Part shown: in pieces, positions 30,164 to 36,766 of the stretch
Position numbering within the stretch: position 1 is the stretch's first letter
How the letters are laid out: each line of letters opens with the position of its first letter
Origin: an uncultured archaeon
GTDB taxonomy: Archaea > Asgardarchaeota > Thorarchaeia > Thorarchaeales > Thorarchaeaceae
Assembly: GCA_964610875.1 (NCBI GenBank)
Contig: CAZSWP010000017.1
Span: 1-64,000, forward strand
Direction of reading: 5' to 3'
DNA: 64,000 nucleotides
Notes under the pieces: generated by a model
The model's input: the letters and a program-made list of their open reading frames with translations, nothing else
The model's database searches: none
What the model was told of the DNA's origin: nothing
Translations under genes and position numbers: made by a program

Positions 30164-30586
30164 ATGCCATTCTATGAGAGTTCTGAGCAACTAAAAGAGG
30201 TATTCGAAGAATTCTGGAGTAGAGCACTTCAGGAAGAAGAAGTCTATGAGAAATTGGTCAAATCCGGGATAATTGTACGGTTTGATATTGAACAACCAGA
30301 GGTACATGTGACAATCAATTTTCGAGATCCGGGTCCTGATGGAAAACTTGGATCATTGAGCTTCGATTCAGATGTGGAACCAGAGATTGCTGTTTGGAGT
30401 ACTTCAGAAACTACGAACAAATTCTGGCAAGGTAAACTAAATACAACTATAGCTATGGCGAAAGGACAAGTGAAGATGGATGGTTCTATTGCAAAAGCCC
30501 TTGGACTCCTTTCGAAAATCAAGCCACTCTTCAAAATATTTCCGAAAGTTTTGCGCGATAAAGGCTTAGATCATATGGTTCTATGA
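30164..30586 (+). CDS. SCP2 sterol/lipid-binding domain protein
   Basis: FWQGKLNTTIAMAKGQVKMDGSIAKALGL. Confidence 0.85.
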   Translation: MPFYESSEQLKEVFEEFWSRALQEEEVYEKLVKSGIIVRFDIEQPEVHVTINFRDPGPDGKLGSLSFDSDVEPEIAVWSTSETTNKFWQGKLNTTIAMAKGQVKMDGSIAKALGLLSKIKPLFKIFPKVLRDKGLDHMVL

Positions 30587-30666: not shown

Positions 30667-30882
30667 ATGGCGGAAATCACAAAAGACATGACAATTGCTG
30701 AAGTCGTAATGAAATGGCCAGAAACAGCTGGAACCTTCATGGAATGGGGGCTACACTGTTATGGTTGTGCTGTTGCGAAATATGAGAATGTCGAACAGGG
30801 CGCTATGGCACATGGAATCCCCGCAGACAAACTTGTTGAAGCACTTAATGAAACAATTGAGAAGAAAAAAGCAGAGGCGTGA
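30667..30882 (+). CDS. DUF1858 domain protein
   Basis: ITKDMTIAEVV..P...F...GLHCYGC....E.VEQGA.AHG. Confidence 0.9.
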   Translation: MAEITKDMTIAEVVMKWPETAGTFMEWGLHCYGCAVAKYENVEQGAMAHGIPADKLVEALNETIEKKKAEA

Positions 30883-30921: not shown

Positions 30922-31776
30922 TTAATCTTTCTCTGATTTTATTCTACCATAGAGACGACCAGTTTCTTCTTCACTCATCTCAAAACTATGTTCCTTGTCA
31001 GGAAACTTCTTACTTCTGACCTCTTCTACGTATTCTAGAACCGCATCTTTCATGATCTTACTGATGTTGGCATATTTCTTGACAAACTTGGGTTTGAAAT
31101 CTTCGAAGAAACCTAACATATCCCACAATACAAGAACTTGACCATCACAATGAGGTCCAGCGCCAATTCCTATCGTTGGTATTTCAACAGATTCAGTGAT
31201 CAGTTTTGCAGTTTCAGTTGGAACCAGCTCAATGACTAGGGAGAAAACACCTGCATCCTGTAGAGCTTTCGCTTGTTCTACCAATACTTCAGTTGCCTCG
31301 GCGGTCCGTCCTTGCACTCGATATCCACCTAAATCGAAGATGGACTGTGGTGTCAGACCTATATGGCCCATAACAGGAATCCCAGCATCAACCACTGCTG
31401 AAATAATATCTGTTACTCTGCCAGCACCCTCAATTTTAACGGCTTCGGCACCACCTGCTTGAAGAGCATAAGCACAGTTCTCTAGAGCCTGCTCAGTACT
31501 AATTTTACATGTCATAAATGGCATATCAGCAATAATCAGACTATCCGGATTTGCTCGTGAAACAGCAGAGCAATGATGCACAATATCATCCAATGTGACG
31601 GGAATTGTGCTTTCATATCCAAGCAGGGAATTACCTACCGAATCCCCAACAAGAATCATATCCACACCGCACTCGCTGAGGATTTTTGCAGATGGAGCAT
31701 CGTAGGCTGTTAGCATCACAATCTTCTTTCCTTTCGATTTCATCTGCTTTATCTTATGAGTAGTCTTTCGAGCCAA
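30922..31776 (-). CDS. panB: 3-methyl-2-oxobutanoate hydroxymethyltransferase
   Basis: MLTAYD, LVGDS, ADMPF, VKIEG, GHIGLTPQ, IGIGAG, DGQVLV. Confidence 0.97.
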   Translation of the reverse strand: MARKTTHKIKQMKSKGKKIVMLTAYDAPSAKILSECGVDMILVGDSVGNSLLGYESTIPVTLDDIVHHCSAVSRANPDSLIIADMPFMTCKISTEQALENCAYALQAGGAEAVKIEGAGRVTDIISAVVDAGIPVMGHIGLTPQSIFDLGGYRVQGRTAEATEVLVEQAKALQDAGVFSLVIELVPTETAKLITESVEIPTIGIGAGPHCDGQVLVLWDMLGFFEDFKPKFVKKYANISKIMKDAVLEYVEEVRSKKFPDKEHSFEMSEEETGRLYGRIKSEKD

Positions 31777-31859: not shown

Positions 31860-33815
31860 TTAGCGGTTTGATTCTGTTAATATAAAGAATGTATCTGCAC
31901 CAGGGAGATAGCTTCCCTTAAACAAACGACGTAGTAAGCATATGAAAACAGAACGTTTCAAATCGATAGATTTTGCATGCTCAGTGACACGGAGTTGACC
32001 TTTCTCCATTCCTGTCTTCCTTAATTGGTCAACCCATTCAACAGTTACCACCACTCCACAAGCATCAATCAGGTATTGGCCATCTAACAGATTCGCCTCT
32101 AACTCAGATGCCAATACTGAATAGTCCATACCAAAAGCATCAGCACGCATACCTACATCAAACACACCCCTTTGTTTTAACCTTGAACGCATGGCATCAA
32201 CAAGAGCCTTTCTGCTCACAAGAACTCCTTTTGGGGTTCTAAGCGCGTTCCAACTCATTCTTGAGAGTATTCGTTGTATCTCTGTTAGATCGTAACCATG
32301 ATGCTTTGAAAATGCAATAGGATTGAGTATCCCGTGTTTCTTGAATTCTTCAGATAACTCAGCACGAATAACATCGTATGGGATTAATGCCCCTTCCGAA
32401 TTCATCATCGCTTCAGTTTCAATATCAGCTAGAATAGCCTCTGCTGTACCAATTTTAATGCCATAAGAGTCCATTAGACTTTGAGGATTTATTCTTTTAC
32501 CAGATTCCAGTTGTGCGCGAGCATTTCTTCTAGCCCATGCCAATGAGAGATAGTCGCCATCTCTTGTTATGGTGGTACGCAGACCAAATCGTTTCATGAG
32601 AGAGAGTATGTCTAAATTGGATAGCCCCCACTTCTCTTCTGCTTCACGAATATTTACCAAACCATTTTCTCTCACAGTTTCTAAGAACCATTCTCGTAGT
32701 ACGCGTAAAGAAATATAATGACCATTTGGATTCTTGCGATATCTTTCATCATCTTTGACCAATCCGATAATTGTAGTTACAGGAACCTGGTACCTATCAG
32801 AAAAGACTTGGGGATCAATAATTCCAAGAAGCTCAATATCATCATGAAACATGCGAGATATTTGAGACAGGGTCAGTATTGAATCATCTTCAGAGGTTAT
32901 CACTCTATGTCCAGATTTTGCAAGCAATCGTAAAGCCTGTTCCTTTGTTATATGCAACTGTTCATTTAGTGTGACAGGAGAGATTAAACCATCCTCAATG
33001 AACTCGACCAATTTCTCTTCAACCAAGTGTTCAGGAACTAGATTCCCTTCTAGAGTTTTAACCAATTTCCAGTGAAGAGCAATGGCTATTTTTGTGATTT
33101 CTTGCTCTTGTATTTCAAGGCGGATTGTTTCATCAGCGGGAGAGAGATATCCTTTCTTCCTAATCTCACTCTCTAGAGACCATCGCACCCATCTTAGAGA
33201 GATTATTTTTCCATTTCTTGTTTCAAAGGCATTCCAGTTCCATGAACGAATTAATTCGAGCAATTCATCTTGCTCTACCTGAAGCCGTTGTGACTCAGTC
33301 AGTGTATCAATACGTCCCTGAAGCTGAAGTGTATCGCGTAGTTTCTCCTTGAGGTCTGGAACTAAGAGATATTCACCAGATTTTGTCCTCAGAACATCCA
33401 ATTTCTCTTTCTGGCAGAGAGCTTCAACAATGTCTGCAACTTTGTCCTCGGTGATACTCCAATTCATTGCTTCCTTACCTGGATTCAAAACATGGGAATT
33501 GACTAGTTGTTCCTTGAACTTTGTTTCCATGACAGGTAGTGAAAGGATTGTCATCCCACTAAATGAGAGAATAGCGTTTTCAGCAAGTTCAACAATTCCT
33601 AATACACTCTTTCTATCAAGGGGTTTCCGAGAGAGCTCCTGTGATGCAGTAACTACACTAATATTTGATTGAAAATCCAGAATCTGATTGAGTTTTGCAA
33701 CACACTTCCTTTTGTTTTGAATACTCCAGTACGCGTATGCAACCAATGCCAGAATTGAGAGGCTTAATCCAATAAAGAGAGAAAAATAATCCTCATCTAC
33801 AAAGGGCAATTGCAT
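31860..33815 (-). CDS. Membrane-anchored tandem winged-helix repeat protein (UFL1/DDRGK1-like repeats)
   Basis: N-terminal TM; ~50-aa repeats with helix-G-x-(I/L)-x-P-HTH-...-TxxGxx(I/L)(S/P). Confidence 0.7.
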   Translation of the reverse strand: MQLPFVDEDYFSLFIGLSLSILALVAYAYWSIQNKRKCVAKLNQILDFQSNISVVTASQELSRKPLDRKSVLGIVELAENAILSFSGMTILSLPVMETKFKEQLVNSHVLNPGKEAMNWSITEDKVADIVEALCQKEKLDVLRTKSGEYLLVPDLKEKLRDTLQLQGRIDTLTESQRLQVEQDELLELIRSWNWNAFETRNGKIISLRWVRWSLESEIRKKGYLSPADETIRLEIQEQEITKIAIALHWKLVKTLEGNLVPEHLVEEKLVEFIEDGLISPVTLNEQLHITKEQALRLLAKSGHRVITSEDDSILTLSQISRMFHDDIELLGIIDPQVFSDRYQVPVTTIIGLVKDDERYRKNPNGHYISLRVLREWFLETVRENGLVNIREAEEKWGLSNLDILSLMKRFGLRTTITRDGDYLSLAWARRNARAQLESGKRINPQSLMDSYGIKIGTAEAILADIETEAMMNSEGALIPYDVIRAELSEEFKKHGILNPIAFSKHHGYDLTEIQRILSRMSWNALRTPKGVLVSRKALVDAMRSRLKQRGVFDVGMRADAFGMDYSVLASELEANLLDGQYLIDACGVVVTVEWVDQLRKTGMEKGQLRVTEHAKSIDLKRSVFICLLRRLFKGSYLPGADTFFILTESNR

Positions 33816-33835
33816 CGGTTGATATCACCAATTGT

Positions 33836-36766
33836 CTAGAGGAATATTCCTTTCTTCCTTAAGCTTCTCTTGTATATCTCCATTCCAAGAATCGCAGGTA
33901 ATGAGGCAAGTATGCAAACTAACCAATCAAAGGCAGTTAGAGGAATAATGTAGAATTCCAGTCCCGCCGTTGCCAAGAACAGCTGTACCTCAGGAATATA
34001 CATCAACAAAAGATGGGCAAGATAGATTAATCCAAGTAGAACAGCAAACCGTTCGATTCCAGGTTCACGAATTCCTTCATGAGCAGGAAGATTAATTCTT
34101 CGAATGATCAATACTAAGACGCTTTCAACAATTAGGATAATTGTGAGAAGCATGGTTGTCGCTTTCATTATCTGAAGGTTCCATTGGTCTGGTACTGGTG
34201 AAGCATTGCTATAGAAACCTGCTAGATTCTCTGGAACAATATCAAGAATGCCCATGAATCCAGTGAAAGCCATCCAGTACACAACAGCTGCACCAATCAC
34301 CATCAATACAACATTTAGTCCCATCAACTTTGCTAGACCACGCGTAATTAGGTCTTCACTGTCCCTAGGTTTCTCTTCCATAGCACGAGGTGATGTTTTA
34401 TCGAACACCAACGCCAGACCAGGGAACGAATGTGTTGTGGCAACCAGATAGAGACTCTGCCAACTTGTGAGCATATTGAATCCTGCTGGTAGGAGAAATA
34501 GTGCTCCAAAGAATATGATGCTTTCAAACAGGTTGATAGCGATATAGAAATAGACCATCATACGTATCTTGTTGAAAAGCCCTCTTCCCTCTTGCACACC
34601 AGTAACAATAGAGGCAAATGAATCATCAGTGATTACCAGATCTGCTGCTTCTTTGGCAACATCTGTTCCAGTGATGCCCATAGCGATACCTGCATCGCTC
34701 ATTGCAAGGGCAAGAGCATCATTCACTCCATCACCAGTCATCGCGACAACTTTTTTGTCATCCTGATAGCGTTCTACAATTATTTGCTTGTGTTCTGGGT
34801 TTACGCGTGCAAAGACATTTACATTTAGAAACGCTTCGTCAGTCAGTGCAGGGATGTCCTTTCCTTCGCACACCAGAGAATTCTCTTTGAAAATATTGAG
34901 ATTTTCAGCGATGGTTTTTGCGGTTGCAGACGCATCACCAGTAATCATTATTACGTTTATTCCCGCACTATGACAAGCATCAACTGCTTCTCTGACACCA
35001 TCACGTGCAGGGTCGACTATTGCGGCAAAACCGAGATATGTCAAATGTCGTTCGGTTTGTTCCCGTGCATTTGGTCCTGATGGGACATAGTCCATTTCAC
35101 GGTGAGCAAGAGAGATGACTCGATATCCACGTGCAGCAAACTCACTACTCAGTCGCATGATTTCTTCACGGATAGAATCAGTCAGGGGTTCGTCGGTTCC
35201 CGCTGTTTCTACCATTGTGCACATAGGAACAAGGACTTCAGTTGCACCTTTTACGAATGCGATGTGTTTATCCCCATTCTTTGCAATCTTTGCCATTCTC
35301 TTAAATTCTGAATCGAATGGGAATTCTTCCACTATACTATAATGGTCATCGACATTTAGTTGACTCTTGCGGTACAATGCAAGTAGGGCGGCGTCTGTAG
35401 GGTCACCCATTGGAATATACATTGAGCCTTGACCAGGAATTATCTTCTCAACGATTTCAGAGTCGTTGTTGATTCCACCACAAATCAATAACTGTGCAAG
35501 ACCCTGCGGCAGGTTATATTCATCCACCTTGAAGGAGTCTTCAAATGAGAGAGTATCGACTGATGAGAGGTCTTTGAGTTTTAGAATGTCACCACTGTGA
35601 GCATAACCAGCTCCAGTAACAGCAAAGATCTCCTCCGTGTCCCAGATAAATTTCACAGTCATTTCATTTCTGGTCATTGTTCCAGTTTTATCTGAACAGA
35701 TCACACTGACTCTACCAAGACTTTCTACAGCTGAGAGGTCTCGAATGATTACACCCTTCTTGGCCATGGCTAGTACTCCCGTCAGCAACACGATAGTCGT
35801 AAGTAATGGAATATTGATGGGCATGATCGTCATGGCCTTGGTGATTCCTGCGGAAAGTGTATTGACTATGATTTCCAAATCCAAGATAATCGGATCACCT
35901 AAAAGCATTGGACCAAAGAAGAGAGCCCAAGTGATTGATAGTACCATTAGAAATACTGCAGCAATTCCAAGATATTTTGCTAGAAGATTTACCTTCCTGC
36001 GTAGCGGGATATCCCCTGTATTTAACTGTTCAAGGGAACCCTGTATTTTTCCAATCTCAGTTCCGCTGCCGGTTGTTGTGGCGACAATTCTTGCAGTGCC
36101 AGTTGAAACATAGGTTCCAAAAAAGACTGTATTGATCATATCAGTAAGCGGAACATCTGATTCTATAGTAGCATTAGCATCCTTTGTAACAGGAACACTC
36201 TCACCAGTCAGAGATGCTTCGTTAGCAGAGAAGTTTGAGCACGTGATAACTCGCGCATCAGCAGGGACTCTATCACCTTGGTCTAATTTGATTATATCTC
36301 CAGGAACGATTTTATCGGGTGTTACTTGAAGCTCATGTCCATTTCTAATTACTCGTACATCTCCCGCACTGAGTTTCTCAAGCGCTTCAAGTTTCTTTTG
36401 GGCACGAAACTGCTGGAAAATAGCAACTAGACAATTCACAGCAACAATGGCCAACCAGAATAAAGCTTGATTCAACTGTGATTCGCTAAATGGAAATGCG
36501 TAAGCAATTATCACCAGCGCAAATGAGCTTAAAAGATAGATATTGATCAACCAGTTTAAGATGGGAGCTAAGTAAACTTTCCAGAAGGATTCTTTTGCTT
36601 TTGGTATCATATTTGGACCATATTGATCCAGACGTGTAGAAGCATCTTCCATTGAAAGACCATTATCAATATCCGTTTCCAATTCGGATACAACTTTGCT
36701 AAGAGGTACAGCATGAAAATTGTTCTTCAACAGAGATTCGGATACGATGGTTTCTTGCGCCGGCAA
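33836..36766 (-). CDS. P-type ATPase, P2-like scaffold with atypical transport site
   Basis: TGES, DKTGT, GDPTD, FDSEFKRM, KGA, MITGD, FARVNP, GDGVND; TM4 PINIP. Confidence 0.95.
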   Translation of the reverse strand: MPAQETIVSESLLKNNFHAVPLSKVVSELETDIDNGLSMEDASTRLDQYGPNMIPKAKESFWKVYLAPILNWLINIYLLSSFALVIIAYAFPFSESQLNQALFWLAIVAVNCLVAIFQQFRAQKKLEALEKLSAGDVRVIRNGHELQVTPDKIVPGDIIKLDQGDRVPADARVITCSNFSANEASLTGESVPVTKDANATIESDVPLTDMINTVFFGTYVSTGTARIVATTTGSGTEIGKIQGSLEQLNTGDIPLRRKVNLLAKYLGIAAVFLMVLSITWALFFGPMLLGDPIILDLEIIVNTLSAGITKAMTIMPINIPLLTTIVLLTGVLAMAKKGVIIRDLSAVESLGRVSVICSDKTGTMTRNEMTVKFIWDTEEIFAVTGAGYAHSGDILKLKDLSSVDTLSFEDSFKVDEYNLPQGLAQLLICGGINNDSEIVEKIIPGQGSMYIPMGDPTDAALLALYRKSQLNVDDHYSIVEEFPFDSEFKRMAKIAKNGDKHIAFVKGATEVLVPMCTMVETAGTDEPLTDSIREEIMRLSSEFAARGYRVISLAHREMDYVPSGPNAREQTERHLTYLGFAAIVDPARDGVREAVDACHSAGINVIMITGDASATAKTIAENLNIFKENSLVCEGKDIPALTDEAFLNVNVFARVNPEHKQIIVERYQDDKKVVAMTGDGVNDALALAMSDAGIAMGITGTDVAKEAADLVITDDSFASIVTGVQEGRGLFNKIRMMVYFYIAINLFESIIFFGALFLLPAGFNMLTSWQSLYLVATTHSFPGLALVFDKTSPRAMEEKPRDSEDLITRGLAKLMGLNVVLMVIGAAVVYWMAFTGFMGILDIVPENLAGFYSNASPVPDQWNLQIMKATTMLLTIILIVESVLVLIIRRINLPAHEGIREPGIERFAVLLGLIYLAHLLLMYIPEVQLFLATAGLEFYIIPLTAFDWLVCILASLPAILGMEIYKRSLRKKGIFL

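Follow-up and report, generated by a model that had tools for sequence, protein, structure and literature searches.

A membrane-anchored, UFL1-like tandem winged-helix protein from Thorarchaeota

Locus and architecture of the UFL1-like protein

The locus described here lies in a stretch of 64,000 nucleotides (the window; positions 1 to 64,000 of contig CAZSWP010000017.1, GenBank assembly GCA_964610875.1) from an uncultured archaeon of the Thorarchaeaceae within the Asgardarchaeota. On the reverse strand, positions 31860..33815 carry a gene for a protein of 651 amino acids (aa; P0001), which we identified as a membrane-anchored, UFL1-like tandem winged-helix (wH) protein on the basis of its open reading frame (ORF), a match to the Pfam family PF09743 and its orthologues. 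The upstream neighbor on the same strand (33836..36766) encodes a 976-aa type IIA (PMR1/SERCA-like) P-type cation ATPase, as assigned by Pfam and NCBIfam, and the downstream neighbor, also on the reverse strand (30922..31776), is panB for ketopantoate hydroxymethyltransferase, as assigned by Pfam and by the gene order in related genomes. Reading of the sequence further revealed a Shine-Dalgarno-like motif, GGTGA (33825..33829, reverse strand), 9 nucleotides (nt) 5' of the ATG within the gap that follows the ATPase gene.

A preliminary description of the gene, made from the sequence alone, had predicted a transmembrane (TM) anchor at the N terminus of the protein, and such an anchor is present. 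The only strongly hydrophobic stretch of the protein (Kyte-Doolittle 2.0) spans aa 10-31 (33723..33788, reverse strand); its assignment as a TM helix also rests on a conserved charge pattern and a modeled helix (see below), and it is conserved across the family, nearly all ~650-aa members having a hydrophobic N-terminal segment. The helix continues into a basic cytoplasmic segment (aa 32-48; 33672..33722, reverse strand). In 12 family members, the mean charge is -1.2 for the 9 residues that precede the anchor and +2.6 for the 17 residues that follow it. According to the positive-inside rule, this sequence pattern suggests that the short acidic N terminus (aa 1-9) lies outside, while the bulk of the protein is probably cytoplasmic.

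The whole protein was modeled with AlphaFold2 (AF2) from an alignment of 12 sequences, yielding a mean predicted local distance difference test score (pLDDT) of 88.6 and a predicted template modeling score (pTM) of 0.50. The model consists of a continuous helix (aa 8-48) followed by 11 wH units of ~55 aa, each of which closes with a long connecting helix, in good agreement with the roughly ten repeats counted previously. When folded alone, the N-terminal 225 aa gave a pLDDT of 87.8. The boundaries of units 1 to 6 are aa 49-107, 108-166, 167-221, 222-275, 276-330, and 331-384, and those of units 7 to 11 are aa 385-439, 440-494, 495-549, 550-605, and 606-648.

Based on AF2 and hhalign, unit 1 (33495..33671, reverse strand) is the most divergent, with the weakest repeat signal among the 11 units, and is basic on average. 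Units 2 and 3 (aa 108-221; 33153..33494, reverse strand) comprise the stretch that matches the N terminus of UFL1 and Pfam E3_UFM1_ligase in HMMER searches, and units 4 to 9 (aa 222-549; 32169..33152, reverse strand) form the core of the array, being mutually recognizable at the profile level by hhalign and present as repeats in the AF2 model. The distal end is made up of units 10 and 11 (aa 550-648; 31872..32168, reverse strand), assigned from profile matches. In unit-versus-unit comparisons with hhalign, units 2 to 9 recognized each other with probabilities of 54-98%; units 10 and 11 gave weaker signals and were linked to the array via units 5 and 9. According to family means, most units are acidic or neutral (down to -5.4), the only consistently basic ones being the terminal units 1 and 11, and the overall isoelectric point (pI) of the 651-aa protein is 6.0. 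The predominance of acidic or neutral units favors protein docking over general nucleic acid binding.

Homology to UFL1 and distribution of the family

Four independent tests, with Pfam, a profile search of the PDB, Foldseek, and VIA-align, identify the protein as a genuine and specific, yet remote relative of the wH backbone of UFL1/DDRGK1. Pfam PF09743 (E3_UFM1_ligase) matched with 35.7 bits (cut-off, 23.2 bits; E, 9.9e-9), HMMER aligning positions 20-115 of the model to aa 120-211, and a scan of the genome placed the match at 33183-33458. The same model matched 10 of the 12 orthologues (best E, 6e-12) and none of 14 control genomes. When a profile of the archaeal family was compared to all PDB sequences, only two entries were returned at E<=1, both of them UFL1 (8b9x, 2.1e-6; 8c0d, 3.6e-4). 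Residues 94-161 of the 8b9x chain match aa 114-179 with ~30% identity in the HMMER alignment; furthermore, the region of units 10 and 11 also matches the N-terminal region of UFL1 (8c0d, profile positions 505-622). The segment likened by eye to the UFL1 N terminus in the preliminary description (aa ~120-170, nt ~33458-33306) is the very stretch aligned by HMMER to PF09743 and 8b9x, and the human sequence given there agrees with that of the 8b9x chain.

Structure comparison led to the same proteins, with UFL1 and the engineered DDRGK1-UFL1 chimera 8b9x on top in both Foldseek and VIA-align. With the whole model, Foldseek ranked ribosome-bound UFL1 first (8qfc_B, 5.1e-13; 8ohd_A, 4.3e-12; 9gy4_E, 2e-11), and 8b9x scored 4e-8. 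VIA-align gave a Z score of 13.0 over 230 residues for 8b9x_B and Z scores of 9.4-10.9 over 345-348 residues for UFL1, compared to at most 8.7 for single-domain wH matches. For the N-terminal 225-aa model, 8b9x was again first (Foldseek, 3.1e-7; VIA-align Z, 11.2), while ESCRT-II reached 5.2e-4. Tandem wH domains also occur in the C-terminal part of SelB (wH1-4), in ESCRT-II (Vps22/25/36), and in the PCI proteins of CSN, eIF3, and the proteasome lid, and individual units superpose with Z scores of 6-8. However, in whole-model Foldseek searches the best matches other than UFL1 were SelB at 2e-4 and ESCRT-II at 9e-3, these proteins gave no signal in the family-profile search of the PDB, and no Pfam PCI match was found in the 651-aa protein. 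The repeats are thus clearly closer to UFL1 than to generic wH proteins, the opposite of which would have spoken against the proposed relationship. A lead from a protein atlas to a eukaryotic UFL1-domain cluster (score, 0.75) was not used as evidence.

For DDRGK1, the second protein named in the preliminary description, the sequence comparison turned out negative. The Pfam DDRGK model (PF09756) gave no match at E<=10 in the 651-aa protein or at E<=0.1 in the 12 orthologues, and a regular-expression search of 12 family members for the DDRGK motif, which in DDRGK1 lies in the wing of WH1', found none. The likeness to DDRGK1 is therefore one of architecture alone: as in human DDRGK1 (also named UFBP1), an N-terminal TM anchor is followed by a cytosolic bulk, with a helix that connects the membrane to the first wH. 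In contrast to DDRGK1, the helix after the TM segment is short (~17 aa beyond the membrane), and the archaeal protein is a natural single chain rather than part of a complex. DDRGK matches elsewhere in the genome were rejected as DDRGK1 partners, since all of them were below the cut-off and the model also matches 9 of the 14 control genomes; the proteins concerned are an eS25-like protein and small, unrelated proteins of the membrane or wH type. The host genome also encodes a 338-aa protein (L004:1387-2400:+, contig C14) in which an eS25-like wH (Ribosomal_S25, 39.4 bits, above the cut-off) is unusually fused to an extended region of Lys/Glu/Pro-rich repeats and to a helix-hairpin-helix domain at the C terminus.

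The human ligase comprises seven wH domains, namely WH1' of UFBP1, the composite pWH-pWH' built from two partial wH domains, and WH1-5 of UFL1 (Makhlouf et al. 2024, PMC10937380). Elements other than wH domains are the UFL1 alpha1 helix that binds UFC1, the peptidyl transferase center (PTC) loop, a helical C-terminal domain (residues 515-786) that is placed in the tRNA sites, and the UFBP1 helix at the exit tunnel (PMC10937380); the archaeal protein contains none of them. The archaeal protein shares with human UFL1 the tandem array of PCI-like wH domains, the long connecting helices and the lack of a catalytic cysteine or other catalytic residues. It differs in having eleven contiguous wH domains, whereas UFL1 has a partial wH plus five, and in having a TM anchor of its own. 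Since its N terminus is a TM helix leading into a complete wH (hydropathy, AF2), with no free amphipathic helix in front of the unit aligned to UFL1, the UFC1-binding alpha1 helix and its hinge were judged to be without counterpart. Likewise, the AF2 model contains no N-terminal partial wH that would need the pWH' of DDRGK1 in trans, as all units are complete wH domains within one chain.

As envisaged in the preliminary description, the archaeal form is thus a single chain. It has as a whole the wH domain that in eukaryotes is made up of two partial ones and that the chimera 8b9x restores by fusing pWH' to pWH. The register relative to UFL1 differs by one unit between the two approaches, the pWH falling on unit 2 in the sequence alignment and on unit 1 in the structural alignment. 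Unit 1 could hence correspond to WH1' of DDRGK1 (sequence register) or to the composite pWH (structural register); in the model, the domain built from two chains in eukaryotes is one complete domain in either register. Because the registers disagree, a one-to-one mapping of the archaeal units to WH1-5 of UFL1 and WH1' of DDRGK1 was abandoned.

According to whole-genome searches, a full-length orthologue is present in half (12) of the 24 genomes sampled from the same taxonomic family, whereas the 16 other genomes of the phylum sample have none. The closest relatives that carry a name are hypothetical proteins of 'Candidatus Thorarchaeota archaeon' with 39-41% identity. NCBIfam assigned no family to the 651-aa protein, and a word-indexed homologue search returned only three proteins. 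When 1.84 billion representative proteins were searched exhaustively with the family profile (HMMER), only 35 matches were obtained, including ~17 full-length proteins of ~650 aa. None of the 35 is a eukaryotic UFL1, so that the link to eukaryotes rests on the Pfam, PDB profile, and structural results given above. The UFL1-like protein is conserved at 27-41% identity in at least 10 other genomes and is thus no chance ORF; the flanking ATPase and panB are conserved at 62-78%. From these sequence comparisons, the family appears to be small, restricted to Thorarchaeota, and fast evolving.

Matches to profile positions 545-646 (units 10 and 11) were obtained for P0019 (2867 aa), P0026 (919 aa), and P0028 (1208 aa) from Thorarchaeota metagenomes and for some short proteins. 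The three long proteins are receptor-like, with a signal peptide, a large ectodomain of the PKD/Ig/NosD type and a TM segment; behind the latter, a UFL1-like wH array lies on the cytoplasmic side and terminates in the two-unit module that is formed here by units 10 and 11.

Among 301 Asgard genomes, 102 have a PF09743 match above the cut-off. A second type of carrier comprises soluble proteins of ~790 aa (L028-L039, e.g., L028:436-2799:-), through which 62 of the 68 genomes of one Asgard family (f9) carry the domain. These proteins consist of a Cys-rich, Zn-ribbon-like N terminus, DDRGK, E3_UFM1_ligase, PCI, and a VPS28-like C terminus, with DDRGK (46-56 bits; cut-off, 27.8 bits) and E3_UFM1_ligase (63-74 bits) contiguous in one chain. 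Units 4 to 9 of the Thorarchaeota protein align to their DDRGK, E3_UFM1_ligase, and PCI region. The wH arrays of the two families are homologous (hhalign, 92.9%; E, 3.6e-7; 283 columns), each is contained in a single chain, and both families are restricted to Asgard archaea. The ~790-aa proteins, however, lack a TM segment, have the Cys-rich N terminus and the VPS28-like C terminus, occur in a different Asgard family, and score much higher with both Pfam models; by sequence, they would be the better candidate for the lineage leading to eukaryotes. Fusions of E3-UFM1-ligase domains in Asgard archaea, of the ~790-aa type, were noted before (Liu et al. 2020, bioRxiv 10.1101/2020.10.19.343400), and UFL1 and DDRGK1 were described as being of Asgard origin, possibly with a UFM1-independent function (Picchianti et al. 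2023, PMC10183829). While the Asgard origin of both proteins is thus already known, we found no description of the TM-anchored, all-wH architecture of Thorarchaeota in the searchable literature.

Absence of detectable UFM1 machinery and proposed function

UFMylation of endoplasmic reticulum-bound ribosomes is an essential quality-control pathway of eukaryotes, and to our knowledge it is not obvious from what source its scaffold-type E3 evolved. The preliminary description had raised the question of whether UFM1, UBA5, and UFC1 accompany the gene. Searches of the host genome, which is 95% complete, with the Pfam models for Ufm1, Peptidase_C78 (UfSP), CDK5RAP3, UQ_con (E2), and ubiquitin gave no match, and no match for UFC1 was accepted, one candidate (E, 0.32) being rejected due to an in-frame stop. 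The ThiF-family enzymes of the genome are of the short MoeB/UbaA type, and the only E1-like enzyme has 260 aa. Furthermore, the genome encodes four to five beta-grasp proteins of the ThiS/MoaD type, which are typical of most archaea. A second ThiF-family match (L049:1282-1755:-, contig C4) has an in-frame TGA and an ORF of only 158 aa, possibly representing an E1-like gene that is broken or truncated.

The lack of catalytic residues, of a UFC1-binding helix, of the C-terminal domain of UFL1, and of a visible UFM1 pathway makes a non-catalytic, UFM1-independent scaffold the most likely reading. At a probability of about two-thirds, we propose that the protein is a docking scaffold in the cytoplasm at the membrane and a remote homologue of the UFL1/DDRGK1 wH backbone; it is not a UFL1 orthologue in function. 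In this role, which we infer, the single-pass protein would have its short acidic N terminus outside and a chain of eleven PCI-like wH domains in the cytoplasm, and this chain would keep a large partner from the cytoplasm close to the cell membrane without catalysis or UFM1. The wH arrays behind the TM segment of the receptor-like Thorarchaeota proteins fit such a membrane-proximal scaffold module.

Several observations weigh against this proposal. The global curvature of the array is uncertain (pTM, 0.50; root-mean-square deviation of ~14 Å over long alignments), and the gene is optional, being present in about half (12/24) of the family genomes sampled, which would be unusual for a core factor of the ribosome or the translocon. 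According to the AF2 model, wH repeats extend up to residue 648, and the PTC loop and the helical C-terminal domain are absent, as is a CDK5RAP3 partner, another UFL1 element giving specificity for the 60S subunit. Moreover, the Pfam Ufm1 model gave nothing above its cut-off in the 301 Asgard genomes, although a study based on structure-guided profiles (Köstlbacher et al. 2026, PMC12962969) reported Ufm1 homologues for nine Asgard clades. As the Pfam model misses these published homologues, the host genome may still hold a divergent Ufm1-like modifier. Sub-threshold Ufm1 matches of 18-19 bits were seen inside ORFs of 703-918 aa in another Asgard family (L021, L022, and L024; family f27); these may represent beta-grasp domains similar to Ufm1 that are embedded in larger proteins, such as those mentioned in PMC12962969.

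The human counterpart points to a possible partner. Nearly all wH domains of the human UFM1 ribosome E3 ligase (UREL) contact ribosomal proteins, those of UFL1 bind ribosomal proteins and not rRNA, and the helix of UFBP1 is docked next to the exit tunnel (PMC10937380). By analogy, the partner of the archaeal scaffold might be the large ribosomal subunit at the membrane, but we regard this as doubtful, because the protein lacks the C-terminal domain of UFL1 and the gene is patchily distributed, both of which weaken the comparison with UREL. It is a more unlikely idea still that the protein represents a surviving pre-UFM1 form of UFL1-DDRGK1, in which the tethered wH arm would dock large ribosomal subunits at the membrane or the Sec translocon without any tag. 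If this were the case, handling of ribosomes at the membrane would be the ancestral job of the scaffold, and the conjugation of UFM1, like the division of the scaffold between two proteins, would have been added later, in the eukaryotic stem.

Whichever partner it has, the Thorarchaeota form is a clean test object, consisting of an anchor and wH repeats only, with a fold predicted at high confidence and no detectable UFM1 pathway. The binding partner of its cytoplasmic arm would reveal what the scaffold did before tagging, and would also test the idea that an ancient gene fission left its scar in the composite wH of UFL1-DDRGK1. If the partner is not the ribosome, the protein would still stand for a lineage-specific family of membrane-proximal wH scaffolds, whose module is also found on large receptor-like ectodomains.

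Alternatively, the protein might be a working E3-like scaffold of a cryptic ubiquitin-like conjugation system with a divergent Ufm1-like or a SAMP/ThiS-type modifier. Like UFL1-UFBP1, it would then deliver the activated modifier to substrates near the membrane. The homology to the scaffold of the UFM1 E3, the Ufm1 homologues of nine Asgard clades that escape the Pfam model, and the presence of a MoeB/UbaA-type E1 and of ThiS/MoaD-type proteins would all be in line with this. We nevertheless consider it improbable, since UFC1, a UQ_con E2, the UfSP protease, and CDK5RAP3 were not found in the genome, the protein has neither a counterpart of the UFC1-binding alpha1 helix nor a DDRGK motif, and the beta-grasp and E1 genes are all located away from the UFL1-like gene.

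Gene neighborhood and other membrane-associated winged-helix proteins

The stop codon of the ATPase gene and the start of the UFL1-like gene are separated by 20 nt, and the end of the latter is 83 nt from panB. Cotranscription of the UFL1-like gene with the PMR1/SERCA-like ATPase is therefore likely: the gap, which includes the GGTGA motif, has no space for a separate promoter. The order ATPase, UFL1-like gene, panB is kept in all 10 orthologous loci, which belong to several genera, and both the ATPase and the UFL1-like protein are membrane proteins. From this, one might take the UFL1-like protein for an accessory or regulatory subunit of the pump that is made from the same transcript and acts at the membrane. 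However, in five of five related genomes without the UFL1-like gene, the orthologous ATPase (63-67% identical) directly adjoins panB. The gene is hence an insertion/deletion polymorphism within a conserved gene order, and its tight linkage to the ATPase is weak evidence, as a single insertion or deletion explains the adjacency and the pump does not need the wH protein. In addition, the two proteins differ greatly in their rate of evolution, with identities of 27-41% for the fast-evolving wH protein and of 62-71% for the ATPase, and related wH arrays are found on unrelated receptor-like proteins. A functional dependence between the two proteins is not supported, and a role as ATPase subunit has accordingly little probability.

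The least probable alternative is a membrane-tethered nucleic acid-binding protein in the style of SelB or a transcription factor, its likeness to UFL1 reflecting only a shared ancient wH repeat: single units do match many DNA- or RNA-binding wH domains (Z, 7-8.7), SelB is the best Foldseek match apart from UFL1, and units 1 and 11 are basic, but the acidic or neutral charge of most units and the overall pI, the position of UFL1 as sole PDB relative by sequence and ~8 orders of magnitude ahead of SelB in Foldseek E-value, and the binding of UFL1 wH domains to ribosomal proteins instead of rRNA all speak against it.

The ATPase itself gave its best scores with models of eukaryote-style PMR1/SERCA Ca2+ pumps, yet remained under their equivalog cut-offs, and two to three paralogues of it are carried in the family of the host genome. 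Just beyond panB, two genes were found on the opposite strand, one for a 140-aa protein of the SCP2 sterol-carrier family (window positions 30164-30586, forward strand) and one for a 71-aa DUF1858 protein (30667-30882, forward strand).

The tethering of wH domains to the membrane seems to recur in the host genome. In a protein of 544 aa (L005:31-1662:+, contig C40), a single TM segment links an ectodomain to a short tail in the cytoplasm with a PCI-type wH, the PCI match (34.4 bits) being above the cut-off. Furthermore, three small proteins (L003:1045-1758:+, L006:1234-1668:-, and L007:1231-1692:-) combine two TM helices with one or two PCI/DDRGK-like wH domains, all of which score below the Pfam cut-offs, and one of them carries an additional zinc ribbon at its C terminus.

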